A DNA stretch of 52,322 nt from a bacterium (GTDB lineage: Bacteria > Patescibacteriota > Minisyncoccia > UBA6257 > UBA9933). The translations under genes were made by a program, and so were the position numbers. Shown here in pieces: positions 3,744-47,277 of this stretch (its first letter is position 1; the number at the start of each line of letters is the position of its first letter). Under the pieces are notes generated by a model. That model was not told where the DNA came from. It saw only the letters and a list, made by a program, of their open reading frames with translations, and ran no database searches. The stretch is from the NCBI GenBank assembly GCA_021786355.1, contig JAJYNK010000011.1, positions 1 through 52,322 on the forward strand, given 5' to 3'.

Positions 3744-3879
3744 ACCCCGCACCTTTAAAGGATATTGCACCTCGCTATTTTTTTATCAAACCAGAATTTA
3801 ATATTTAAAATAACTAGTTTATAATAAGGATTATGCAAAAAGGCGCATCTAAAAATACAATCCTTTAAAGGTGCGGGGT
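3744..3879. repeat. 20-bp perfect inverted repeat enclosing a 96-nt AT-rich spacer
   Basis: ACCCCGCACCTTTAAAGGAT (3744-3763) and its exact reverse complement (3860-3879). The right arm ends 26 nt before the ftsK ATG. Confidence 0.85.
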
Positions 3880-3905
3880 AAAATGATAGAATTGATTTTA
3901 GTAAA

Positions 3906-6032
3906 ATGTCCAATAAAAAAAATAAGAAGAATAAAAAAAACGCAAAATCTTTATCAAACGAGGAGGCGGAAAACGAAGCAAAACAATCAAGGCTTCATCC
4001 CGATACTAAAAAAAGCGTGTTCGCTATAGGTTTTTTGGCATTGGCGCTTATTTTAATTTTAGCGAGATTCGGAAACGCCGGTCCGGTCGGCGACTACGCG
4101 TATAATTTTTTTAACTGGCTTTTTGGCGTGGGCTATTTTCTTCTGCCGCTTATTCTTATAATAATGTCGGTTGTTTTTTTAACTTCAGAAAGGAGAAAAA
4201 TTTACGGAATTACTTTTATCGGCGCTATTATTTTTGTTTTGTCGAGCTTGGGGTTGATAGATATTTTTTATTCCGATAAAGCCGGAATTTTCGGCTGGCT
4301 AGTCGGCTCCATCGAGTCGTTGTTTGGTCGGGTTGCTTCGATAATTATTGTTGTCGCGATGATAGTCGCGTCATTTTTAGTAACTTTGAATTTGCCCATA
4401 AAAATAAGAAGAAGGCCCAAAGAATCGATTTTGGAATCAGAGGTTAGCTGGGAAGAAGAAAATAAACAGGAGAGTTCTGAAGCTAAACAGCCAGCCGAAA
4501 AAAGCGAAAACGATGTTCAAGGGGAAACAGCTGAAGAAATAGAGCCGAAAGTGGAAGTAAAAGAAAGATTCGCTTTGCCTTTTTCGCGTCCAGCTAAAAT
4601 TCAAACCAGCCGGGCGCCCGCTAATTATATTTTCCCGCCTCTGGATTTATTAAAGTCTTCTGTTGAAAAACCGACTTCCGGCGATCTTCGCGCTAACGCA
4701 AATATTATTAAAAGAACTCTGGACAGCTTCGGTATTCCGGTGGAAATGGGGGAAATAAATGTCGGTCCCAAAGTAACGCGTTACACTCTGAAACCCGCTG
4801 AAGGCGTGAAGCTTACTAGAATAACCGCCTTGTCTTCCGATTTATCCATGGCTTTAGCCGCGCACCCAATAAGAATAGAAGCGCCGATTCCGGGAAAATC
4901 ATTGGTTGGAATTGAAGTCCCTAACAAGGCCGCTTCAATTGTCCGTTTGGGGAGCTTGATGGCGTATCCGGAGTTTTCCGCAGCCGGGTCACTGGGCTTC
5001 GCGCTCGGCAGAGACGTTACCGGCGAGCCGATTTTCGCCAATATAGAAAAAATGCCTCATATGCTTGTTGCCGGATCAACCGGAAGCGGAAAAAGCGTTT
5101 CCATTCATTCGCTTTTAATATCACTTTTGTATAAAAATTCTCCCGATAATTTAAAAATGATTTTAATCGATCCCAAACGGGTCGAACTTACGGCCTACTC
5201 GGGGATTCCGCATTTGATAGCTCCTGTGGTAACCGAATCTAAAAAATCTTTGGGGGTTTTTAAATGGGCGCTTAAAGAAATGGACGGCCGCTATGAAATG
5301 CTGGAAAGCGCCGGTTCTCGCGACATTAAAAGTTATAACAAAAAAAATCCAAACAGCCCTTTGCCTTTCATTATTATAGTAATTGACGAGCTAGCCGATT
5401 TAATGAGCACGTATGGCAGAGAAGTTGAAGGCTCTATTGTCCGGTTGGCGCAAATGGCAAGAGCCACCGGTATTCATTTAGTATTAGCTACGCAGAGGCC
5501 GTCGGTAGAAGTTATTACGGGCCTTATAAAAGCCAATATTACCACTAGAGTCGCTTTGCAAGTCGCCAGCCAAGTAGATTCCAGGACGATTTTAGATAGT
5601 TCCGGCGCTGAAAAACTTTTGGGCGGCGGCGATATGCTTTATATATCCAGCGATCTTTCCAAGCCAAGAAGAATTCAGGGCGCGTATGTGTCCGAAGAAG
5701 AAATAAATAAAGTTACCCAATTTATAAGAGAAAATAACGGCGGTTACGATCATGAAGACGCGCCCACTTTTGAAAACGGCGCTTCATCGAATGCGATGAC
5801 GTCCGAAAGTTTATTTGATGGATTTGAAAATGACAACGACGACGAATTGCTTGAAGAAGCGATAGCCGTTATAACGGAAGCTCAAAAAGCGTCGGCATCT
5901 TTACTTCAAAGACGTTTGAAAGTGGGTTATGCTAGAGCTGCCCGGCTTCTGGATATAATGGAAGCCAAAAGTATTATTGGCCCTGGCGACGGGGCAAAAC
6001 CCCGCGAGGTTTACGTAAAAAGAGAAATTTAA
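3906..6032 (+). CDS. ftsK: DNA translocase FtsK/SpoIIIE
   Basis: N-terminal TM helices, a linker, a Walker A motif (GSTGSGKS), a Walker B motif (IIVIDELADL) and a C-terminal gamma wHTH (LLQRRLKVGYARAARLLD). Confidence 0.95.
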   Translation: MSNKKNKKNKKNAKSLSNEEAENEAKQSRLHPDTKKSVFAIGFLALALILILARFGNAGPVGDYAYNFFNWLFGVGYFLLPLILIIMSVVFLTSERRKIYGITFIGAIIFVLSSLGLIDIFYSDKAGIFGWLVGSIESLFGRVASIIIVVAMIVASFLVTLNLPIKIRRRPKESILESEVSWEEENKQESSEAKQPAEKSENDVQGETAEEIEPKVEVKERFALPFSRPAKIQTSRAPANYIFPPLDLLKSSVEKPTSGDLRANANIIKRTLDSFGIPVEMGEINVGPKVTRYTLKPAEGVKLTRITALSSDLSMALAAHPIRIEAPIPGKSLVGIEVPNKAASIVRLGSLMAYPEFSAAGSLGFALGRDVTGEPIFANIEKMPHMLVAGSTGSGKSVSIHSLLISLLYKNSPDNLKMILIDPKRVELTAYSGIPHLIAPVVTESKKSLGVFKWALKEMDGRYEMLESAGSRDIKSYNKKNPNSPLPFIIIVIDELADLMSTYGREVEGSIVRLAQMARATGIHLVLATQRPSVEVITGLIKANITTRVALQVASQVDSRTILDSSGAEKLLGGGDMLYISSDLSKPRRIQGAYVSEEEINKVTQFIRENNGGYDHEDAPTFENGASSNAMTSESLFDGFENDNDDELLEEAIAVITEAQKASASLLQRRLKVGYARAARLLDIMEAKSIIGPGDGAKPREVYVKREI

Positions 6033-7830: not shown

Positions 7831-7862
7831 CTCGTTTATCCCACGATCGTTGGATAAACGAG
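7831..7862. promoter_or_regulatory. 32-bp palindrome with ACGATCGT core, upstream flank of cassette A
   Basis: CTCGTTTATCC-c-ACGATCGT-t-GGATAAACGAG, 30/32 symmetric. It lies just downstream of a TATAAT at 7819-7824 and 24 nt before the ATG at 7886. Confidence 0.7.
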
Positions 7863-7885
7863 TAAAAGAAAATTAAATAAAAAAC

Positions 7886-8461
7886 ATGAAAAAAGGAGAA
7901 ATTACCTTAAAAGCTCTCGAAGCCATAGGAGATACCGCAATAAATTTTTTTGACCTTATGGTTGTAATTATGGGCTCAAGGTACGGCGCCTCGTATGGCG
8001 AACTGGATTTTGAATTTAGAAAAAGACAATTCGAAAGAGAAGTAGAAGCAGGAAAACAATTAGAGAAGCAAAAATTTTACGACTTGGTTTATCGGCTTAA
8101 AAAGCAGGGATTAATACAAGAGAAAGAAAGTAAATTTAAATTAACGAAATTAGGATTTGAGAAGTTAAAATTTTTAAAAGAAAGGAAAAAAGAAAGTTTG
8201 CCAACTAATGATTTCCCTGCGGAAAAAGGAAATAATTTTTGTATCGTGATTTTTGATGTTCCTGAAGCCGAAAGAAGAAAAAGGGACTGGCTAAGAGATT
8301 CCTTGGGTCATCTCGGATTAAAAATGATTCAAAAAAGCGTTTGGATCGGCAAAGTAAAAATACCCAAACCATTTTTGAATAGTTTGTTTAAATTAAAAAT
8401 GTTGGATTACGTAGAAATTTTTGAAATTACCAAAGCCGGTAGTTTAAAGCACGTAGTCTAG
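7886..8461 (+). CDS. winged-helix + Cas2/PaaX-like ferredoxin-fold domain protein (paralog A)
   Basis: C-terminal block FCIVIFDVPEAERRKRDWLRDSLGHLGLKMIQKSVWIGK…YVEIFEITKAGSLK has the Cas2/PaaX pattern (beta1 hhhhFD[IV]PE, helix, QKSVW). The N-terminal half has wHTH-like YRLKKQGLIQEKESKFKLTKLG. Paralogs are at 36328 and 46648. Confidence 0.6.
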   Translation: MKKGEITLKALEAIGDTAINFFDLMVVIMGSRYGASYGELDFEFRKRQFEREVEAGKQLEKQKFYDLVYRLKKQGLIQEKESKFKLTKLGFEKLKFLKERKKESLPTNDFPAEKGNNFCIVIFDVPEAERRKRDWLRDSLGHLGLKMIQKSVWIGKVKIPKPFLNSLFKLKMLDYVEIFEITKAGSLKHVV

Positions 8462-8492
8462 TAGTACGAACCGTAATTTGATAGTTTCAGCT

Positions 8493-8534
8493 AAAAACTC
8501 GTTTATTCTACGATCGTAGAATAAACGAGTTTTT
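8493..8534. promoter_or_regulatory. 42-bp perfect palindrome with ACGATCGT core, downstream flank of cassette A (also terminator-like)
   Basis: AAAAACTCGTTTATTCTACGA|TCGTAGAATAAACGAGTTTTT. Each half is the exact reverse complement of the other, and the A5/T5 flanks give bidirectional terminator geometry. Confidence 0.75.
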
Positions 8535-8550
8535 GAATTAAGTTATTTTT

Positions 8551-8579
8551 TTGAAAAAAGAGTTAATTAGAATTATACT
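8551..8579 (+). promoter_or_regulatory. sigma70-like promoter, probably giving a leaderless transcript for the 8586 gene
   Basis: TTGAAA (8551-8556), a 17-nt spacer, TATACT (8574-8579), then 6 nt to the ATG at 8586. Confidence 0.45.
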
Positions 8580-8585
8580 ACTCCT

Positions 8586-9914
8586 ATGAAATTCATTGCC
8601 GACTTTCATATTCACTCCAAATACTCCCGAGCCACCAGCAAAGATATGGTTTTGGAAGAGCTTGACCGCTGGGCGGATGACAAAGGAATTTTAGTAATGG
8701 GAACCGGTGACTTTACACATCCTGTCTGGTTTAACGAAATTAAAACCAAACTCGATCCCGCCGAGGCGGGGCTCTATAAATTAAAAAAAGAACTGAAACT
8801 TCCCACCATAAAAGAAACTTTCAGCGATACGCGTTTTATTTTAACCGCGGAAATTTCCGGAATTTACAGCCGCGGGGGGAAAACAAGAAGAATACATAAT
8901 ATACTTTTTTCTCCAAGTATCGAGGTTGTAGAGAAAATTAACAGCGCGCTTGGAGCGATCGGAAATTTAAAATCCGACGGCCGGCCGATTTTGGGCCTGG
9001 ATAGCGAAAAGCTGGCGGAAATTGTTTTTAATATAGACGAAAATATCGTTATTATTCCGGCTCACGCTTGGACTCCGTGGTTTTCAATTTTCGGTTCGAT
9101 GTCAGGGTTTGATTCCATCGAAGAATGCTTCGGTAAATACGCAGATAAAATTTTTGCCATAGAAACCGGGCTTTCAAGCGACCCGGCGATGAATTGGCGG
9201 TTGTCTAAGCTAGACAAAATTGCTTTGATTTCTAATTCCGATTCGCACTCTTTGCAGAAAATTGGCAGAGAGGCGAATATATTGGATACGGAACTTTCTT
9301 ACGAGGGGGTTGTAAAGGCGATTAAAAATGGAGCTCCCGCTAACCGGAAACAAACATCCGATAATAAACAACAAAATTTTGTTGCCACGTTGGAATTTTT
9401 TCCCGAAGAAGGAAAATACCACTATGACGGCCACCGTGTTTGCGGAGTCGTTTTTTCTCCGGACGAAACAAAAAAACACAACGGAATTTGTCCGGTATGC
9501 AAACGGCCGCTTACGGTGGGGGTTGTTTATAGAGTTGATCAACTTGCGGACGCGAAACCGGAAGTTATAAATGAAGGCAATTACCATTATTTTGACAATC
9601 GCGTTCCTTATTATAATCTCGTGTCTTTGGATGAGATTATCAGCGAGGCTTTTGGCGTGGGAACGGCTTCCAAAAAAGTTAAAGAAGCCTACTTGGATTT
9701 GATAAAAAAATTCGGCTCGGAATTGAAAATTCTTTTGGAAACGAGCGTTGAGGAATTAAAAAAATCTATCGACCCAATGATTGTCGAAGGCATTAAACGG
9801 GCGCGTGAAGGAAAAATTAAAATCCGGCCCGGCTATGACGGTGAGTACGGCGAAGTAAAAATATTTAATGACGGCGAAAGAGAAAAAATGAAAACCCAGC
9901 AGGCATTGTTTTAA
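8586..9914 (+). CDS. PHP-domain endonuclease Q-like protein
   Basis: An N-terminal PHP motif (FIADFHIHSKYSRATS), further His/Asp motifs (PAHAWTPWF, SNSDSHS) and a Cys cluster (CGVVFSP…CPVCKRPLTVGV), as in the EndoQ family. Confidence 0.7.
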   Translation: MKFIADFHIHSKYSRATSKDMVLEELDRWADDKGILVMGTGDFTHPVWFNEIKTKLDPAEAGLYKLKKELKLPTIKETFSDTRFILTAEISGIYSRGGKTRRIHNILFSPSIEVVEKINSALGAIGNLKSDGRPILGLDSEKLAEIVFNIDENIVIIPAHAWTPWFSIFGSMSGFDSIEECFGKYADKIFAIETGLSSDPAMNWRLSKLDKIALISNSDSHSLQKIGREANILDTELSYEGVVKAIKNGAPANRKQTSDNKQQNFVATLEFFPEEGKYHYDGHRVCGVVFSPDETKKHNGICPVCKRPLTVGVVYRVDQLADAKPEVINEGNYHYFDNRVPYYNLVSLDEIISEAFGVGTASKKVKEAYLDLIKKFGSELKILLETSVEELKKSIDPMIVEGIKRAREGKIKIRPGYDGEYGEVKIFNDGEREKMKTQQALF

Positions 9915-19166: not shown

Positions 19167-19200
19167 TGTAAATATCAAAATGAAAAATGACAATGTAAAA
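19167..19200 (+). repeat. AT-rich intercistronic repeat, copy 1 (secD|secF spacer)
   Basis: TGTAAATATCAAAATGAAAAATGACAATGTAAAA is identical over 34 nt to 44696-44729. A partner arm TGTCATTTTTATTTT lies downstream in the same spacer. Confidence 0.85.
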
Positions 19201-24868: not shown

Positions 24869-25441
24869 ATGCTTTATACCGACTTAAAACCCGGAACCTG
24901 CGTAATTATTGACGGCCAGCCATGCGTGGTTTTGGAATATGAATTTTTAAGAATGCAGCAGCGAAAGCCCGTGGTTAAAACCAAACTTAGAAATTTAATT
25001 TCCGGTAGCATTTCCGAACGTTCTTGGCAGCCGTCCGACGACATAAAAGAGGCGGAAATTGAAAGGCAGAAATCCCAATTTTTATATTCTCATCGGGGAG
25101 AATTTTGGTTCACGGAAGCAAATAATCCCAAAAATCGGTTTAGTTTGAAAGAAGAATTTATCGGTTCGATTAAAGATTTTTTAAAAAATAATTTAGAAGT
25201 TATGGCGATAAAATTCGACGAAAAAATAATCGGCATCGAAATTCCGATAAAAGTTGATTATAAGGTTATTGAAGCGCCTCCGGCCATAAAAGGCAACACT
25301 GCTCAAGGCGGAACAAAAACCGTGATTATTGAAACCGGCATCAAAGTTGCCGTCCCGCTTTTTATAAATGAAGGGGACATTATTAAAATAAATACTCAAA
25401 GTGGAGGGTATGCGGAAAGGGCAGAAAAGGGCGGTCTTTAA
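24869..25441 (+). CDS. efp: translation elongation factor P
   Basis: Typical EF-P N-terminal KOW-like domain (DLKPGTCVIIDGQPCVVLEYEF…KPVVKTKLRNL). 190 aa. Confidence 0.93.
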   Translation: MLYTDLKPGTCVIIDGQPCVVLEYEFLRMQQRKPVVKTKLRNLISGSISERSWQPSDDIKEAEIERQKSQFLYSHRGEFWFTEANNPKNRFSLKEEFIGSIKDFLKNNLEVMAIKFDEKIIGIEIPIKVDYKVIEAPPAIKGNTAQGGTKTVIIETGIKVAVPLFINEGDIIKINTQSGGYAERAEKGGL

Positions 25442-33149: not shown

Positions 33150-34172
33150 TTAAACCGCCAGCCGCTGGTGCCGGTGTTTTTTATCGGTCCAGTCGTTTAT
33201 AAGCTCTTGAAACACCGCCGCCACAGGGATTCCTAAAATAAATCCCGTAAAGCCGGCAAGAGTCGCTCCGGCCAGAAGAGCGAAAACAACAACAACCGGA
33301 TGAATATCAACCGTCCTTTTCATGACAATCGGAACTAATAAGTTAGATTCGACTTCATGGAGAATTACGAAAAGTATAAGCACTTTAATTGCTAACGCCA
33401 CAGAAATCGGAACGGCCATTAAAAACGCGACAATTCCCGCGACAATAAGCCCGATATAGGGAATTATTTCCAAAAGTCCGGCCAAAAGTCCTATTGCCAG
33501 ACTAAAATTTACACCTAACGCTTTCATTCCTAAAAAAGTGGCAAAGCCGACTATGAAACTCAAAATAACTTGCCCTTGCAGCCATTTGCCGATTTTTTTC
33601 CTTGTTCGATGAAATACATTAACCGCGTAATCCTCTTGGTTTGACGGCAAGATAGATTTTAAAAAATTTTCAACCCCCTCGCGATTTAATGCCAAGAAAA
33701 AAGAAACGACAACGGTTGTTATTGCTAAAACGATATTTTTAAATATCGAGGGAATCAGGCCGGTGATTGAAAGGTCGCCGTTGAAAAACATGGAAGTCAA
33801 GCGGTCTAAAAATTCCCCCGCGCTTGCCGTTATTCTGGAGATTCCCGGAACTCCGGAAAGCGCGCCCTGCATTTTATCGAGGTTGGCGAAAATATTTCTA
33901 AGCTCGATGATGCTAATCGGTATTATAGTGTAAAGAACTACCGCAAAAAGAAGGAAAAATGTTATAAAAATGAAAATAAGCCCTAAAATTCGGGGGATTT
34001 TGCGTTTTTCCAGAAAGGTCAAAGGCGCGTCAATGGCCGAAGAAATTACTATAGCCAGTAGAAAGACCACAAAAATGTCGCGGATAAGATAAAGGGCAAC
34101 GGCTAAAATCAGCATAAACAGGACTCTCCAAAGCGAGGTCCAAGAAATTTCTATGTGTTGATTTTCTGCCAT
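33150..34172 (-). CDS. AI-2E family transporter (PerM/UPF0118)
   Basis: Polytopic membrane protein with a typical C-terminal half (…LEIIPYIGLIVAGIVAFL…ILGIPVAAV…). The ATG at 34172 is preferred. The alternative upstream ATG at 34232 adds 20 atypical residues. Confidence 0.8.
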   Translation of the reverse strand: MAENQHIEISWTSLWRVLFMLILAVALYLIRDIFVVFLLAIVISSAIDAPLTFLEKRKIPRILGLIFIFITFFLLFAVVLYTIIPISIIELRNIFANLDKMQGALSGVPGISRITASAGEFLDRLTSMFFNGDLSITGLIPSIFKNIVLAITTVVVSFFLALNREGVENFLKSILPSNQEDYAVNVFHRTRKKIGKWLQGQVILSFIVGFATFLGMKALGVNFSLAIGLLAGLLEIIPYIGLIVAGIVAFLMAVPISVALAIKVLILFVILHEVESNLLVPIVMKRTVDIHPVVVVFALLAGATLAGFTGFILGIPVAAVFQELINDWTDKKHRHQRLAV

Positions 34173-34274
34173 TGTTTTTATAATAATACCATTAATTTCA
34201 AATAGCAATATTTTTAGTTTTTTTGACTTCAAATAAAGTTTGAAACAAGCCGAATTTCAGTATAATGAAAGAAT

Positions 34275-35561
34275 ATGAAAAGAAAGCGGTTTTATTTTGA
34301 TTACGCCGCCACAACTCCTTTAGATAAAAAGGTTTTTTTAAAAATGAAGCCTTATCTTGAGGATAATTTTGGCAATCCGTCTAATTTGTACGAAGCCGGA
34401 CGCAAAGCCAATCAGGCGGTTGGCGAAGCGACTGATAAAATAACTAAAGCTTTGAATTGCGCGCCTGATGAATTTATTTTCACAAGCGGAGCTACCGAAG
34501 CGGATAATTTGGCGATAGCCGGCATAGCCCGCGCCAATAAAGAGTTTGGCAATAAAATTATAATTTCAGCCGTTGAGCATAAAGGCATAATGTCCGTTTG
34601 CGATGCGCTAAAAAAAGAAGGGTTTGAAATTGTAAAAATTCCGGTTAATAAGTTTGGCTTGGTTGATTTAAAAAAACTAAAAAAAGAAATTAATTCAAAA
34701 ACGATTTTGGTTTCTATAACTTACGCGGACAGCGAAACCGGCACAATTCAACCAATCGCAGAAATAGCCGATATTATAAAAAAATTTAAAGAAAAAAAAT
34801 ATTCTAAACCCTATACCCTCGTGGCTAGTGGCTATCCGCCTTATTTCCACACCGACGCCAGTCAAGCCGCGCCATATCTCGATATTAATGTAAAAAAATT
34901 GGGAGTTGATCTAATGACTTTGTCCGCGCATAAAATTTACGGGCCGAAAGGCATCGGCGGATTATATATAAAAAAAGGAATAAAAATAAAACCCATAATT
35001 TACGGCGGCGGACAGCAAAGTTTGAGATCGGGGACTCAAAATGTTCCGGCAATTGTCGGTTTCGGCGAAGTAATGGCGCTGGCGCAGAAAAATAAAAAAG
35101 CGGAATTTAAACACGTAAAACAATTAAGAGACAAATTGGGAAAAGGAATTTTTAAAACCATTCCTAGGATTATTTTAAACGGCCATCCTAAAAACCGTTT
35201 ACCTAATTTTTTAAATATTTCCGTTTTAGATATTGAGGGGGAAGCGTTATTATTATACTTGGATGAAAAGGGAATTGCGGTTGGTACTGGCTCCGCCTGC
35301 AATTCCGAAAGTCTGGAACCGTCCTATGTTTTAGCCGCGCTTGGCCGGCCTTACGAATATATCCACGGCAGTATCCGGTTTACACTCGGAAAATATACGA
35401 AAGATTCGGACGTGAATTATGTTTTGAAAAATTTGCCTGAAATGGTCAAAAAACTCCGCCAGATTTCCCCTTTGAATTTAAAAATTAAAAATCCTCAAAA
35501 AATCAGCCAGCCAAAAGCCTTTGTCGGAGGCAAAACCCCGCATTTTTTAAAAAAGAAATAA
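34275..35561 (+). CDS. nifS: cysteine desulfurase NifS/IscS type
   Basis: PLP-lysine region (SAHKIYGPKGIGGLY) and active-site Cys loop (GTGSACNS). Confidence 0.92.
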   Translation: MKRKRFYFDYAATTPLDKKVFLKMKPYLEDNFGNPSNLYEAGRKANQAVGEATDKITKALNCAPDEFIFTSGATEADNLAIAGIARANKEFGNKIIISAVEHKGIMSVCDALKKEGFEIVKIPVNKFGLVDLKKLKKEINSKTILVSITYADSETGTIQPIAEIADIIKKFKEKKYSKPYTLVASGYPPYFHTDASQAAPYLDINVKKLGVDLMTLSAHKIYGPKGIGGLYIKKGIKIKPIIYGGGQQSLRSGTQNVPAIVGFGEVMALAQKNKKAEFKHVKQLRDKLGKGIFKTIPRIILNGHPKNRLPNFLNISVLDIEGEALLLYLDEKGIAVGTGSACNSESLEPSYVLAALGRPYEYIHGSIRFTLGKYTKDSDVNYVLKNLPEMVKKLRQISPLNLKIKNPQKISQPKAFVGGKTPHFLKKK

Positions 35562-35564
35562 TAC

Positions 35565-36257
35565 ATGTCAAAAAAATCGTTAACCGCAAAAAAGAAAACC
35601 CCGGACGTTGTTAATAAATTCACCGGCGGAAACTGGGTTTATACAAAAGAAGTAAAAGAACATTTTTTTAAGCCCAAAAATTTATTGTGGGAAAATCCTG
35701 ACAGCGCCAAATTCGACGCTGAAGGAATTGTTGGTTCTCCTGCTTGCGGCGATGTTATGCGCGTGTGGCTTAAAATCGATCCTAAAAAAGACAGGATTAT
35801 TGAATTCAAATGGCGGACATTCGGCTGCGCCAGCGCCATCGCCGCCACTTCCATGCTTTCGGTTATGGCAACCGAGAAAGGCGGCATGAAAATAGACAAA
35901 GCGTTAAAAATTAAGCCTAAAGATATAATGAAACGGCTCGGAGGGCTTCCGGACAGAAAAATTCACTGCTCGGTTTTGGGCGATAAAGCGCTTAGAGCGG
36001 CGATAAACGATTGGTTTAAAAAAACCGGCCAATACGAAAGAATTATCGTGGAAGGTTCACGAGTTATTGACCCGGACACTAAAGTCACGGAAGCGGACAT
36101 CGAATCCGCGGTTATCGAAGGTGTAAAAACAATCGAGGGCCTTCAAAAAAGGACAAAAGTCGGGATCGGAAATCCCGCGTGCCTCGACGAAGCCGAACAG
36201 CTACTGAGATTTTACAGGGAAAAGTATTTCGGGAAAGAAGTCTCATTAACCAATTAG
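35565..36257 (+). CDS. nifU: NifU-like Fe-S scaffold (IscU-like N-domain plus BFD-like [2Fe-2S] domain)
   Basis: GSPACGDVM, FGCASAIA and HCSVLG scaffold cysteines, with a C-terminal …VGIGNPACLDEAE… segment. Confidence 0.85.
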   Translation: MSKKSLTAKKKTPDVVNKFTGGNWVYTKEVKEHFFKPKNLLWENPDSAKFDAEGIVGSPACGDVMRVWLKIDPKKDRIIEFKWRTFGCASAIAATSMLSVMATEKGGMKIDKALKIKPKDIMKRLGGLPDRKIHCSVLGDKALRAAINDWFKKTGQYERIIVEGSRVIDPDTKVTEADIESAVIEGVKTIEGLQKRTKVGIGNPACLDEAEQLLRFYREKYFGKEVSLTN

Positions 36258-36279
36258 AGTCACTTTTGATAATCTTTAT

Positions 36280-36317
36280 CTATCGGACTATTTGACGATC
36301 GTAAATTAGTACGATAG
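36280..36317. promoter_or_regulatory. 38-bp imperfect palindrome with ACGATCGT core, upstream flank of cassette B
   Basis: CTATCGGACTATTTG-ACGATCGT-AAATTAGTACGATAG. The arms are 12/15 complementary. It ends 10 nt before the ATG at 36328. Confidence 0.65.
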
Positions 36318-36327
36318 CATTAAGTAA

Positions 36328-36897
36328 ATGCGAGGAGAAAAACGGTTAAAAATTTTGGAATTTCTTTCAGAATCAACCCGCACAGCAGGAGATTTATTTT
36401 CTATTTTTACAATGCCGTACGGAACATCACTTTATAGGGGATTGAAAACAGCGGAAAGATATCATCAAGAACGAGAAAATAGAGAGATAGAAAGGAGAGA
36501 ACGGCTAAATTTCAACGATCTAATTTATAGATTAAGAAAAGACGATCTCGTAGAAGAATTTGGGGAAAAAAGAAAAAAATTTTTTCGCCTAACAGATAAG
36601 GGAAAAAATAGTTTGGCAAAGCTTGAGTTAAGAATATTAACTGATAATTACGAGATAAAAAGGGATAATTTAGTGAAAATTGTAGTTTTCGACATACCAG
36701 AGAAAAAAAGGAAAATGCGCGATTGGATCAGAAGAATATTAGTAAATTTGGAATTTAATATGCTCCAAAAAAGTGTTTGGATCGGCAAAACAAAAATTCC
36801 GGAAGAATTTATTAAACAACTTAGGAATCTAAACCTCTTGTCTTATGTGGAAATATTTGAGATAAGTAAAACTGGAAGTTTAAAGCAAATAAAATAA
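36328..36897 (+). CDS. winged-helix + Cas2/PaaX-like ferredoxin-fold domain protein (paralog B)
   Basis: VKIVVFDIPEKKRKMRDWIRRILVNLEFNMLQKSVWIGKTKIPEEFI…YVEIFEISKTGSLKQIK. Clear paralog of 7886-8461 and 46648-47232. Confidence 0.6.
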   Translation: MRGEKRLKILEFLSESTRTAGDLFSIFTMPYGTSLYRGLKTAERYHQERENREIERRERLNFNDLIYRLRKDDLVEEFGEKRKKFFRLTDKGKNSLAKLELRILTDNYEIKRDNLVKIVVFDIPEKKRKMRDWIRRILVNLEFNMLQKSVWIGKTKIPEEFIKQLRNLNLLSYVEIFEISKTGSLKQIK

Positions 36898-36904
36898 TTT
36901 TTAG

Positions 36905-36944
36905 CCTATCGGATTAATTCACGATCGTTAATTAATCAGATAGG
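36905..36944. promoter_or_regulatory. 40-bp imperfect palindrome with ACGATCGT core, downstream flank of cassette B
   Basis: CCTATCGGATTAATTC-ACGATCGT-TAATTAATCAGATAGG. The arms are 14/16 complementary and share CTATCGGA with the upstream flank. Confidence 0.65.
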
Positions 36945-36997
36945 ATAGGAGATATTGGTTAAAAAATAATTAGAGAATAATTATAAAAGTATTAGTT

Positions 36998-37216
36998 ATG
37001 GAAGCTAAGGTTAAAGAAATTTTGAACAAAGTACGGCCGTATATTAAAATGCACGGAGGTGATGTTGTGTTTGTGGAAATTAAAGACAATGACGTTTTTT
37101 TACAGGTTTTTGGCGCTTGCAAAGATTGCCCTTTATCCGATTTAACTTATAATAAAATGATAGGGGGGCTTCTTAAAGAAGAAATTCCCGAAATTAAAAA
37201 AGTCGTTATAATATAA
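36998..37216 (+). CDS. NifU C-terminal (Nfu-type) Fe-S cluster carrier domain protein
   Basis: 72 aa. VRPYIKMHGGDVVFVEI…GACKDCPLS carries the CxxC motif. Confidence 0.8.
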   Translation: MEAKVKEILNKVRPYIKMHGGDVVFVEIKDNDVFLQVFGACKDCPLSDLTYNKMIGGLLKEEIPEIKKVVII

Positions 37217-37224
37217 ATTTTAAA

Positions 37225-37482
37225 ATGGCAAACCAAAAAGAATATATTAGAAATCGCGCGGATTCAAACATAAGCAAAATCATTATTGACCGCGATCTTT
37301 GCATAGGCGCGGCATCTTGCATTGCCGTTTCCGGCTCCACATTTGAGTTGGATAACGAAAATAAAGCGGTGGTAATAGGAGCCGACACGGCGGACGATGA
37401 AACTTTAAAAATGGCCGCCGAATCCTGCCCCACTAAAGCAATTTTGCTTTTTGACAAAGAAGGTAAGCAGGTTTATCCATAA
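37225..37482 (+). CDS. small ferredoxin (single [4Fe-4S]/[3Fe-4S] type)
   Basis: DRDLCIGAASCIAV…ESCPTKAI: a CxxxxxC…CP ferredoxin pattern. Confidence 0.72.
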   Translation: MANQKEYIRNRADSNISKIIIDRDLCIGAASCIAVSGSTFELDNENKAVVIGADTADDETLKMAAESCPTKAILLFDKEGKQVYP

Positions 37483-37486
37483 ATAT

Positions 37487-37626
37487 TTTAAACAATAATA
37501 TTCTTTCGCTACCGTTCAGCCTCCCAGCGAGCGGCTTCACTGGCGCCGCTCCTTCGCTCGGTCGCCTATGGCGACCACCGTGCCCGCTCAGTCGCGGAGC
37601 CGCGCTCAAGAACATTATTGTTTAAA
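37487..37626. other. GC-rich hairpin element bounded by AT-rich 17-bp inverted repeats
   Basis: TTTAAACAATAATATTC (37487-37503) pairs with GAACATTATTGTTTAAA (37610-37626) at 16/17 positions. The 106-nt GC-rich core has hairpins GAGCGG…CCGCTC and GTCGCC-TATG-GCGAC. Confidence 0.6.
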
Positions 37627-37641
37627 ACAACATAAATTAAA

Positions 37642-38901
37642 ATGGAAAAATATAAGTATGTAATTGTGGGCGGGGGAGTTGCGGGCTTTACGGCGGCTGA
37701 AACATTGCGACAAAAAGACGTAAGCGCCACGATTGCTGTTATAAACAGCGAACCGTACGCCTTATATTCGCGTGTGATGTTGTCAAAGCCCGACTTTTTT
37801 TTGGGCAAAATTCCTTTTGATAAAGTTTGGATGAGAGGCCAGGATTGGTACGAGAAAAACAATATAACTTTTTTTGGCAGTAAAACAGCCGCGTCGCTTG
37901 ATGCCGATAAAAAAATTGTAAAACTATCCGATGGCTCGGAATTAGGCTATGAAAAACTGCTTATTGCCACCGGAGTTTGCGCCAGAAAATGGGGCATTCC
38001 CGGATCCGAAAGAGAGGGCGTTTATTATTTGCGCACCATTGACGACGGAAAGAAAATAATGGAGGCGATAAAATCCGCAAAGCGCGCCGTCACTATCGGC
38101 GGAGGGTTTATTAGTTTTGAAATGGCGGATTTGTTTGCTTTGGCGAAAATAGATACAAGTGTTGTTATTAGGGAAAATTATTTTTGGGAGCCGACTTTAG
38201 ATGAAGCCTCCGGCAAAATGATTGAAAAAGTCCTTACTGGGAGCGGCGTTAAAATAATAAACAACGCCGAAGTCCAGGAAGTTGTAGGCGAGAATAAAGT
38301 TGAGGGTATTGTTTTAAAAGACGGCAGGAAAATAGAGTGCGATATGGTTATTTGCGGAATCGGAGTAGCTTGCGATTTTAACTGGTTTGCTTCATCGGGA
38401 ATAAAAACAAACCGGGGAATTTTAGCGGATGAATATCTTCAAACCAATTTGCCTGACGTGTGGACTGCTGGAGACATTGCCGAATACAACGACCTGCTTT
38501 TGGAAGAAAATATCCAGCTTGGCAACTGGGTGAATGCCCATGAGCAGGGAAGGATTGCCGGGTTAAATATGGCCGGCGTTCACGAGCCGTTTAAATTCGT
38601 TTCGTTTTATACGACTCAAGGAATGGGGATCTCCGTCGCTTTTGTCGGAGATACCAGGCCCGGCCAGGACAGAATAATAATCAAGCGCGGTTATCCGGAA
38701 ATAAATTCCTACGCCCGCATAATTATTGTTGGCAAAGAACTTGTGGGCGCGACTTTAATAAACAGAACCAGTGAGTTATCGGTAATCGCCAAACTTATTG
38801 AAAATAATATTGACGTTTCTCAAAAATATAAGGAACTCGAAGACCCGAATTTTGATTTGAAAGGGCTTTTAAAAACAGAAGTAAAAATTATTCAGTTATA
38901 A
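37642..38901 (+). CDS. FAD-dependent pyridine nucleotide-disulfide oxidoreductase (ferredoxin/rubredoxin reductase-like)
   Basis: An N-terminal GGGVAGFTAA dinucleotide fold, a second Rossmann motif (VTIGGGFISFE) and GDIAE. Confidence 0.8.
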   Translation: MEKYKYVIVGGGVAGFTAAETLRQKDVSATIAVINSEPYALYSRVMLSKPDFFLGKIPFDKVWMRGQDWYEKNNITFFGSKTAASLDADKKIVKLSDGSELGYEKLLIATGVCARKWGIPGSEREGVYYLRTIDDGKKIMEAIKSAKRAVTIGGGFISFEMADLFALAKIDTSVVIRENYFWEPTLDEASGKMIEKVLTGSGVKIINNAEVQEVVGENKVEGIVLKDGRKIECDMVICGIGVACDFNWFASSGIKTNRGILADEYLQTNLPDVWTAGDIAEYNDLLLEENIQLGNWVNAHEQGRIAGLNMAGVHEPFKFVSFYTTQGMGISVAFVGDTRPGQDRIIIKRGYPEINSYARIIIVGKELVGATLINRTSELSVIAKLIENNIDVSQKYKELEDPNFDLKGLLKTEVKIIQL

Positions 38902-44695: not shown

Positions 44696-44729
44696 TGTAA
44701 ATATCAAAATGAAAAATGACAATGTAAAA
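44696..44729 (+). repeat. AT-rich intercistronic repeat, copy 2 (hydrogenase small|large spacer)
   Basis: 34 nt identical to 19167-19200. It starts 3 nt after the stop codon, as does copy 1 (4 nt after). Confidence 0.85.
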
Positions 44730-46586: not shown

Positions 46587-46630
46587 CAAAACATCGTATA
46601 TGTGACGACCGTCACATATACGATGTTTTG
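46587..46630. promoter_or_regulatory. 44-bp near-perfect palindrome (core ACGACCGT), downstream flank of cassette C
   Basis: CAAAACATCGTATATGTGAC-GACC-GTCACATATACGATGTTTTG, with 20-nt perfectly complementary arms. It lies about 40 nt upstream of the protease gene start. Confidence 0.7.
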
Positions 46631-46647
46631 GTAGTTTTAAAATGATT

Positions 46648-47232
46648 TCATGTCTTTAATTGTTTTAAACTGCCAGTTTTGCTTATTTCAAATATTTCAA
46701 CATACGGTAGAAGATCAAAATTTTTTAGATTGTGTATCAATTCTTCGGGAAGCTTTGTTTTTCCAATCCAAACACTTTTCTGCAACATTTTAAATTTCAA
46801 ATTTCTGAGAACCTCTCTTATCCACCCTCTTTTCTTCCTGTGCTTTTCTGGAATGTCAAATATTATAATTTTAAATGTATTTTCGTTTTCTATTTTATAT
46901 ACTTTTTGAGGAAACTCATTTGTTTTTCTTAAACGAAGATTTTCCAATTTCTCCGCGCCTTTTTTGGTTATTTGCAATGATTTTTTATTTTCTTTATTAA
47001 TATTTTCGATTAACCCCTCTTTTCTTAGGCGATATAATAGATCGTAAAAACGCAATTTTTCTTCGCGATCTATTTGTCGGCCTTCTCTTTCTCTTTGGCG
47101 GCGCGCTAAAAGTTTTAATCCTTTATTTAATGAAGTTCCATAGGGTAAGCTAAAAATAAAAAACACATTGCCTATGGTTTGAGCTGATTGTTCGAGGGTT
47201 TCTAATATTTTTAATCCATACTCTCCTTTCAT
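46648..47232 (-). CDS. winged-helix + Cas2/PaaX-like ferredoxin-fold domain protein (paralog C)
   Basis: FKIIIFDIPEKHRKKRGWIREVLRNLKFKMLQKSVWIGKTKLPEELI…YVEIFEISKTGSLKQLKT. The start at the ATG at 47232 is preferred, because the longer ORF runs through the upstream palindrome. Confidence 0.6.
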   Translation of the reverse strand: MKGEYGLKILETLEQSAQTIGNVFFIFSLPYGTSLNKGLKLLARRQREREGRQIDREEKLRFYDLLYRLRKEGLIENINKENKKSLQITKKGAEKLENLRLRKTNEFPQKVYKIENENTFKIIIFDIPEKHRKKRGWIREVLRNLKFKMLQKSVWIGKTKLPEELIHNLKNFDLLPYVEIFEISKTGSLKQLKT

Positions 47233-47245
47233 AATTATTATTTTA

Positions 47246-47277
47246 ATCGTATATCTGACGATCGTCAAATATACGAT
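47246..47277. promoter_or_regulatory. 32-bp palindrome with ACGATCGT core, upstream flank of cassette C
   Basis: ATCGTATATCTG-ACGATCGT-CAAATATACGAT. The arms are 11/12 complementary. It lies 14 nt from the ATG at 47232. Confidence 0.7.

Follow-up and report, generated by a model that had tools for sequence, protein, structure and literature searches.

The gene string for iron-sulfur (Fe-S) cluster assembly on the 52,322-nt stretch of DNA analysed here (contig JAJYNK010000011.1 of assembly GCA_021786355.1, hereafter the window) is split between nifU and nfu by a compact unit, cassette B (36280-36944), in which a single gene, likewise termed B, is enclosed by two palindromes. Gene B encodes a small protein consisting of the first two domains of the regulator PaaX. 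On sequence evidence, and with a probability of about 0.6, the unit is best read as an autorepressing DNA-binding module, that is, a self-contained regulator gene accompanied by two operators of its own. It is one of three such cassettes in the window (A, B, and C) and a representative of what is apparently a large, hitherto undescribed family of bracketed cassettes. The operon and cassette B are laid out as follows.

34275..35561, + strand: NifS-like cysteine desulfurase, first gene of the operon (Pfam Aminotran_5, E 2.5e-72)
35565..36257, + strand: NifU_N plus BFD-like scaffold protein (Pfam NifU_N, 4.5e-36; Fer2_BFD)
36280..36317, no strand: upstream palindrome of cassette B, predicted operator, with halves CTATCGGACTATTTGACGA and TCGTAAATTAGTACGATAG (19 + 19 nt, 84% self-complementary)
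36292..36320, + strand: leaderless promoter predicted for gene B by consensus scan (TTGACG-17-TAGCAT), its end 7 nt from the ATG
36328..36897, + strand: gene B, 189-residue mini-PaaX, with a winged helix at residues 1-104 and a Cas2-like PaaX_M domain at residues 112-188 (PF20803, 5.4e-15)
36906..36943 (36905..36944 with one extra pair), no strand: downstream palindrome of cassette B, predicted second cognate site, 2 mismatches
36998..37216, + strand: Nfu (NifU C-terminal-like domain), first gene distal to the insertion (PF01106, 1.1e-22)
37225..37482, + strand: 4Fe-4S ferredoxin (Pfam Fer4_13, Fer4_15)
37642..38901, + strand: ferredoxin/rubredoxin-reductase-like flavoprotein, last gene of the operon (Pyr_redox_2, 3.6e-56)

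A preliminary description of this DNA had proposed the order nifS-nifU-palindrome-B-palindrome-nfu-ferredoxin on one strand, which the positions of the open reading frames (ORFs) and their Pfam matches bear out. The flanking palindromes that it placed at 36280-36317 and 36905-36944 are likewise real, being 80% identical as direct copies with a common arm CTATCGGA(C/T)T and a common centre ACGATCGT, and the downstream copy does lie shortly ahead of nfu, with its end 54 nt and its centre 73 nt from the ATG. Palindromes of the same type, some of them perfect, bracket the B orthologues on five further contigs (L001-L005). In L003, the upstream copy is identical to that of the window and the downstream copy is a perfect palindrome; in L001, where the encoded orthologue is only 66% identical, the upstream copy is perfect.

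The family to which B belongs amounts to 711 clusters (50% identity) scoring E <= 1e-30, every named member of which comes from the Patescibacteria, with several copies per genome. Bracketing was followed in 88 gene copies, made up of 80 loci from different GTDB species of other Patescibacteria, the B orthologues on the five further contigs, and the three genes of the window. Palindromes of 30-48 bp were located upstream of 73 and downstream of 78 of the 88, and were centred on CGATCG in 61 upstream and 61 downstream copies; the rest mostly carried CGGTCG, CGACCG, CGGCCG, or TGATCA. A census over 623 kb of long palindromes with a CGATCG-type centre found 112 of 116 within 360 bp of a family gene, and three of the four exceptions were third copies of the local type. 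When positions were counted from the dyad in the 62 loci with both copies present, positions 1-4 proved universal, positions 12-16 and 8 were the same in both copies of a locus and different between loci, and positions 5-7 and 9-11 varied even between the two copies of one locus. Of five protein regions, only residues 56-90, which make up the recognition helix and wing, showed an identity that co-varied significantly with outer-arm similarity (partial Mantel rho 0.23, p <= 0.002). This covariation is taken to mark a winged helix that reads the arms directly. The genes surrounding the family members are diverse, unrelated housekeeping genes to which the cassettes are oriented nearly at random.

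Several features of individual family loci deserve separate mention. Among 74 upstream neighbours, 11 match Phage_integrase; in L023 (3053-3943) and L054 (2959-3873) these are Xer-like tyrosine recombinases of about 300 residues, co-directional with and directly upstream of the cassette, outside its palindromes. Judging by co-directional upstream ORFs of similar length, loci such as L027, L031, L036, L037, L039, L051, L064, L067, L075, and L079 are probable further members of this Xer group, mostly with (T)TACTAT-type arms. A third palindrome of the local type is present in L020 (gene 4712-5215 on the minus strand, palindrome 5335-5380) and in L025 (gene 3799-4251 on the minus strand, palindrome 4462-4503), at the 5' side of a small winged-helix gene (LexA_DNA_bind/HTH_11-like) convergent with the cassette, forming a module of two regulators and three palindromes; targets outside the family's own gene thus do occur. 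Long palindromes of another family, which have CTGCAG or CTCAAG at the centre and arms of the type AACATTCT..AGAATGTT, recur in different species, namely in L026 (7036-7067 and 7093-7122), L038 (3106-3139), and L042 (3398-3431), and may represent the operator of another regulator family of the candidate phyla radiation (CPR). Two palindromes in L078 (56-81 and 202-247), approximately 3.8 kb from the cassette, contain TGTTTCACGTGAAACA, presumably a match to the parS consensus. Contig ends within about 60-200 nt of a family gene are common (L006, L007, L010, L015, L041, L058, and L059 among them), three independent assemblies of the B orthologue (L003, L004, and L005) start 59-116 nt upstream of the gene, and L055 holds near the start of its locus sequence (1-150) a 142-bp perfect fold-back centred on CGATCG. 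Long palindromes may break or fold back metagenome assemblies.

The identity of protein B was established from its domains and predicted fold. Its strongest Pfam match is PaaX_M (PF20803, "PaaX central Cas2-like domain") at 55.7 bits (E 5.4e-15; gathering cutoff 24 bits), accompanied by weak N-terminal matches to PadR and HTH_5; paralogues A and C likewise pass PF20803. The AlphaFold2 model (mean predicted local distance difference test score 82) displays helices at residues 3-15, 20-27, and 56-71, the last being the recognition helix, followed by a β-wing at 75-88, a linker helix, and a β-α-β-β-α-β-β domain. The best Foldseek match of this model is E. coli W PaaX (8a39), and PadR-like proteins (LmrR), TubR, and Cas2 come next; since a profile search of PDB sequences returned nothing significant, it was the fold comparison alone that brought PaaX to light. 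B therefore holds the first two domains of PaaX without the ligand-binding third, and is a mini-PaaX. It fails as a PaaX equivalog on three counts: the polypeptide stops at residue 189, directly past the Cas2-like domain, with PaaX_C absent; paa families are missing from the 25 commonest Pfam neighbour families (72 downstream and 74 upstream neighbours surveyed, 25 families per set), the neighbours of B itself being Fe-S assembly genes; and TIGR02277, with a cutoff of 264.55 bits, scores only 29.2 bits over residues 66-178 (profile positions 41-150 of 279). The protein contains no cysteine and no evident sensor domain.

Assignment to the Cas2 proteins of CRISPR (clustered regularly interspaced short palindromic repeats) systems was also rejected. 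The Cas2 models reach 27.5 bits on B for PF09827 (cutoff 23.8 bits) and, for TIGR01573 (cutoff 24.5 bits), fall below threshold for B (23.6 bits) and C (22.8 bits) and above it for A (27.7 bits), all far short of PaaX_M; these borderline scores explain why some homologues are publicly named "CRISPR-associated endonuclease Cas2". No CRISPR array exists in the window, none of its 16-mers being repeated three times or more; Cas families are absent from the same commonest neighbour families, and the winged helix is fused to the domain. D122, in the motif FDIPE, is invariant and aligns (with 3exc) to the Asp at the end of Cas2 strand β1, which we take to be the catalytic one. The single ORF of cassette B has no transposase or integrase match in Pfam or NCBIfam.

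The predicted promoter of gene B, found by consensus, places its -35 hexamer and spacer inside the upstream palindrome. Similar promoters precede gene C (TTGACG-17-TAAAAT-7-ATG) and the B orthologue of L001 (TTGACG-17-TATCAT-7-ATG). Across the family, a -10-like hexamer (at least five of six positions matching TATAAT) follows on the gene side in 48% of upstream copies, its position peaking sharply at +17 from the dyad, against 25% on the mirror side and 13-22% at downstream copies. With this enrichment on the gene side only, and with a TTGAC-like core in some clades only, the idea that the palindrome is a symmetric back-to-back promoter pair was discarded. In three places of the window the predicted -10 hexamer stands 6-7 nt before the ATG with no Shine-Dalgarno sequence visible, at 8550-8588 (the PHP-like gene at 8586), 36292-36330 (B), and 47230-47268 (C), and leaderless mRNAs may be common in this organism.

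From these elements, a mechanism can be proposed. A small dimer of B would bind each 38-bp palindrome, its two winged helices reading the outer arms, specific to each locus, at a distance of 12-16 bp from the dyad on both sides, with the universal ACGATCGT centre being accounted for by a conserved part of the protein or by a requirement of DNA shape. Bound to the upstream palindrome, B would cover the -35 hexamer and spacer of its own leaderless promoter, so that binding there should repress gene B and establish negative autoregulation. For the downstream palindrome, the most likely part is that of an auxiliary operator or a roadblock, making autorepression tighter and curbing transcription into or out of the cassette. 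The ancestor of a narrow clade acquired the whole palindrome-gene-palindrome unit, which on this reading derives from a C-like paralogue, between its nifU and nfu genes, and the unit was lost or exchanged thereafter in close relatives. The nfu-ferredoxin-reductase genes would now be reached only across the two B sites or from the B promoter, and B, bound at both, is thus likely to modulate the transcription that reaches them.

The paralogous cassettes of the window share this architecture.

7831..8534, + strand: cassette A, with palindromes at 7831-7862 and 8493-8534 around the gene at 7886-8461, located between recA and a PHP-like gene
46587..47277, - strand: cassette C, with palindromes at 47246-47277 and 46587-46630 around the gene at 46648-47232, located between DUF6390 and a HycI-like gene

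Paralogue C, at 56-58% identity, is the closest relative of B within the window, and paralogue A shares 40%. A loose outer-arm pattern occurs at three sites in the 52 kb against 0.13 expected, and the arm pattern of A at two sites against 0.01 expected, which is beyond chance; no other such palindromes were found in the 52 kb beyond loci A, B, and C. It had been claimed earlier that the arm of B is common to both of its flanks and differs from those at A and C. This holds for the two flanks and for A, but the arms of C (ATCGTA-TATTTGACGATCG) and B (ATCGKACTATTTGACGATCG) are plainly related, the main difference being 1 nt of spacing per half-site. A metagenome-wide scan with the B half-site (TATCGKAYTANTTNACGATCG) gave two chance matches, non-palindromic and away from family genes, in a collection that missed even the known L001/L002 Joint Genome Institute contigs, so that the scan is silent on a regulon. 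The ORF at 24869-25441, considered as a further paralogue, bears no relation to the family by sequence comparison and is presumably elongation factor P-like. The window also holds a 34-nt direct repeat, TGTAAATATCAAAATGAAAAATGACAATGTAAAA, at 19167-19200 and 44696-44729, each copy following a stop codon by 2-5 nt and preceding the next gene in the same direction.

The preliminary description had suggested that a unit sitting between functionally coupled genes is what an insertion would look like, and had proposed a check of nifU-nfu adjacency in related genomes, noting that the gene should then not be at this exact position in all of them. That comparison favours insertion. B orthologues occupy the very same place in L001/L002 (66% amino acid identity) and in L003-L005 (91%), giving three lineages with the cassette here, and in seven relatives with NifU proteins 76-91% identical the string nifS-nifU-nfu-fdx-reductase runs uninterrupted, with nifU-nfu gaps of -20, 38, 3, 113, 3, 18, and 185 nt. 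The three of these gaps that were read contain no CGATCG palindrome, and no family gene was found on the cassette-less contigs (by tblastn in L086-L089; among the called genes in L092-L094). L094, which lacks the cassette, is nested in one tight clade with the carriers (the window, L003, and L001), with Pyr_redox identities of 85-91% against 50-64% to the outgroups (NifU and ferredoxin identities were also used). Because L094 and the carriers share this clade and the outgroups are uninterrupted, contiguity of nifU and nfu is ancestral, the unit having entered in the stem of the clade and become absent again in L094. When cassettes A, B, and C and the L001 copy are aligned, homology extends from the outer edge of the upstream palindrome to the outer edge of the downstream one; the palindromes therefore travel with the gene. 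A supposed second cassette-nfu junction in L019 turned out to be an alignment artefact, the neighbours there being a Laminin_G_3 protein and ORFs without a Pfam match.

The junction has also seen turnover since. Between the window and L003, the cassette is 92.9% identical at the nucleotide level with a synonymous divergence (dS) of 0.24, whereas nfu, fdx, and the reductase gene are 84-85% identical (dS 0.68-0.97), and the block of high identity does not extend past the start codon of nfu. A comparison of the window with L001 reverses the discordance, with a cassette protein only 66% identical (nonsynonymous divergence, dN, 0.255) against 86-91% for the proteins of the flanking genes (dN 0.05-0.08); paralogue C retains 83% identity in the same two genomes. 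Since the divergence of the cassette is at odds with that of its flanks, and an empty site exists in L094, the nifU-nfu junction is a place of cassette exchange or loss between close relatives. Gene B is under purifying selection (dN/dS 0.10-0.16), within-genome paralogues are at most 59% identical in any genome, which gives no sign of recent transposition, and no family member was found in IMG/VR viral contigs. Fresh insertion of an active element was accordingly rejected on the purifying selection, the divergence of the paralogues, and the presence of 66%-identical copies at the same place.

A second element lies close by. Between the ferredoxin and reductase genes, the window contains a G+C-rich element of about 105-125 nt (37496-37620; approximately 62% G+C in a genome of 39.5%), flanked by an A+T-rich inverted repeat, AAACAATAATATTCTT / AAGAACATTATTGTTT. 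A copy in the opposite orientation (L094 992-1098, 86% over 107 nt) is located in the nifU-nfu gap, in the place held by cassette B in the window. No blastn copy was present in L001 or L003, nor was there an Rfam match; it looks like a small mobile element, similar to a miniature inverted-repeat transposable element, or a structured RNA.

The role of the downstream copy calls for closer consideration. It starts just past the stop codon, and the next gene is co-directional in 45 loci and convergent in 34. A T-run follows only 7-8% of palindromes, whether upstream or downstream, and a -10-like hexamer comes after 12-14% of downstream copies. Being indifferent to orientation, poor in -10-like hexamers and T-runs, and followed by unrelated neighbours, the downstream copy is in general neither the operator of the neighbouring gene nor an intrinsic terminator. 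In L001, 22 nt separate its end from the nfu ATG and no -10-like hexamer follows it, so that transcription of nfu there has to cross the palindrome, whether it starts at nifS or at the B promoter. The downstream palindrome of the window carries TTCACG-17-TAGGAT, mirroring the upstream arrangement, followed by 54 A+T-rich nucleotides and then nfu.

It is on this copy that the possibility of B being primarily a dedicated regulator of nfu, ferredoxin, and reductase turns. The downstream palindrome would then serve an nfu promoter as its operator, and the cassette would have been taken up to free the distal Fe-S/redox genes from their coupling to nifSU. The retained promoter-like hexamers, the short distance to a co-directional nfu, the lack of a terminator between B and nfu, the preservation of the arrangement in L001-L005, and the non-self targets intimated by the third palindromes of L020 and L025 all speak in its favour, but seven relatives run the same operon without B, the L001 copy leaves 22 nt to the ATG and is followed by no -10-like hexamer, and downstream copies are as common before convergent genes (34 of 79) with -10-like hexamers rare. 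This alternative, which the preliminary description had raised, is thus conceivable for copy B and draws no support from the family pattern; overall, it is considered unlikely. A dedicated Fe-S-sensing role is unlikely too, because B has neither a cysteine nor a ligand or sensor domain for sensing Fe-S or redox state and because those seven relatives lack the gene. That the palindromes are RNA hairpins only, serving as terminators, stabilisers, or processing sites unbound by protein and kept similar within a locus by gene conversion, is scarcely credible. The downstream copies of A and C do fold strongly (-25 and -33 kcal/mol) with A and U runs at their sides, downstream copies begin straight after the stop codon, and differences between copies are often compensatory. 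Against this, the hairpins of B are A+T-rich and imperfect, the upstream fold being weak (-11.3 kcal/mol, z -1.8), and the upstream copy would lie outside its own transcript, as the predicted -10 hexamer comes after it. Palindrome mismatches comprise 37 of GT type and 47 of AC type, with no excess of G·U pairs on the sense strand, and Rfam gave no match at either threshold, on which grounds an RNA motif was dismissed. The arms co-vary specifically with the recognition helix and wing, and the dyad centre is conserved as sequence, beyond the needs of a mere loop. The narrower suggestion that the palindromes are terminators only fails as well, given the scarcity of T-runs, the weak upstream hairpin of B, and the absence of any terminator-like site on the plus strand at 34100-38000, with no T-run after the downstream palindrome of B.

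A selfish or mobile unit, in which the Cas2-like domain would serve as nuclease or recombination factor on CGATCG centres to bring about excision, homing, or exchange, with regulation being secondary, is rather improbable, although much of the turnover evidence could be accommodated by it: the presence/absence polymorphism and clean empty sites in one tight clade, a divergence decoupled from the flanks (dS and the contrast between B and C in the same genome pair), homology of paralogous cassettes ending at the outer edges of the palindromes, near-random orientation among unrelated housekeeping genes, palindromes found almost only beside the family gene, the invariant D122 aligned with the presumed catalytic Asp of Cas2, and symmetry held at otherwise unconstrained spacer positions. 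Set against it are the want of any paralogue pair above 59% within a genome and of viral copies in IMG/VR, the empty sites without a palindrome or recognisable target in the three gaps read, the apparent long vertical stability of one orthologous group beside an Xer-like gene in 11 species, and the function of PaaX_M in PaaX as a dimerization domain; moreover, homologous recombination through the conserved nifU and nfu flanks can explain both presence/absence and exchange. Of the marks of a mobile cassette, clean presence and absence is seen (L094 and six outgroups), and a recombinase of its own and near-identical or dispersed copies are not. A class of enzymatic self-bracketed cassettes, whose winged-helix/Cas2-like protein would nick or cleave the CGATCG dyad with the D122-equivalent Asp active and so drive excision, exchange, or homing between related CPR genomes, is improbable as well; if true, it would account at once for the clean presence or absence at nifU-nfu, for a cassette that diverges independently of its flanks, for units bounded by the palindromes, and for the symmetry of otherwise unconstrained spacer positions.

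Autorepression by B through operators of its own remains the preferred reading, and the points that weigh against it should be given fair consideration. The B promoter is a consensus match only. For a simple dimer of two winged helices, it is unusual to combine a universal dyad centre with variable arms. As a rule holding across a whole family, a second operator at the 3' end of its own regulator gene is without established precedent, and here it occurs between convergent genes as well. Neither a cysteine nor an evident sensor domain is available in the protein through which repression could be relieved, and the near absence of cognate sites away from family genes (4 of 116) is odd for a regulator with a regulon. 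Lastly, spacer positions 5-11 show 48 compensatory against 75 one-sided differences between copies, a symmetry within each copy that plain operator selection does not predict and that needs either hairpin or cruciform formation or a template-switch "palindrome correction". Template switching of this kind, known as quasi-palindrome correction, could keep long palindromes symmetric. What is proposed here from sequence comprises the binding of B to DNA, the repression that would follow, the part played by the downstream site, and the influence on nfu.

The Patescibacteria have tiny genomes in which regulation has hardly been studied, and every gene of the family is accompanied by two cognate sites that can be read from the sequence. 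One small unit thus offers a protein together with its predicted operator and specificity code, as a direct and testable handle on CPR regulation, and the family would constitute a natural set of orthogonal repressor-operator pairs. The analysis also corrects the recurring misannotation as "CRISPR-associated endonuclease Cas2" and supplies a concrete case of an operon split by such a unit, followed by turnover of the unit between close relatives. The coincidence of long perfect palindromes with contig ends in several assemblies bears on the quality of metagenome-assembled genomes. A limited literature search on PaaX-like or Cas2-like regulators or CGATCG palindromes in CPR bacteria yielded nothing relevant, and what seems new is the set as a whole, namely a universal dyad centre, paralogue-specific arms, two bracketing copies, and inheritance, loss, or exchange as a block, for which no description was found in the searchable literature.

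Of the known systems, PaaX is the closest. It recognises TGATTC-N27-GAATCA, also represses its own promoter by hindering RNA polymerase, and uses PaaX_M for dimerization (PMC9493321). Protein B resembles PaaX (E. coli W, 8a39) and the PaaX-like protein of Jannaschia (3l09) in having an N-terminal winged helix followed by the Cas2-like PaaX_M, and the sequence pattern of its predicted operator fits short inverted arms far apart, here 12-16 bp either side of the dyad. It differs in the lack of the phenylacetyl-CoA-binding PaaX_C, in length (189 against approximately 305 residues), and in having no paa genes near. The mini-PaaX family as a whole departs further from PaaX through its universal CGATCG centre, the predicted second operator at the 3' end of the gene, the several orthogonal paralogues per genome, and the restriction of its named members to the Patescibacteria. 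With Cas2, the likeness is confined to the ferredoxin-like β-α-β-β-α-β domain and its aligned Asp (D122); the fusion to a winged helix, the lack of a CRISPR array in the window, and the much better PaaX_M score set B apart.

A regulator gene lying between cognate sites, where a distal site downstream of the promoter could raise the local concentration of repressor, is familiar from lambda CI, with OL and OR flanking cI, and from the O1 and O2 operators of LacI, both of which employ auxiliary operators and looping. The cassette differs from these in that single palindromes bracket one small gene, as a family-wide rule, and travel with it on duplication. Repetitive extragenic palindromes and their associated tyrosine transposases (REP/RAYT), the ends of IS200/IS605, integron attC sites, and pdif modules likewise combine cognate palindromes around a gene, a short core, variable stems, and gain or loss as a block. 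The cassette is distinguished from all of these by enclosing neither an HUH transposase nor a tyrosine recombinase and by palindromes that are gene-adjacent (112 of 116) rather than dispersed and without recent copies, and its arms follow the winged helix that it encloses instead of a shared host recombinase.

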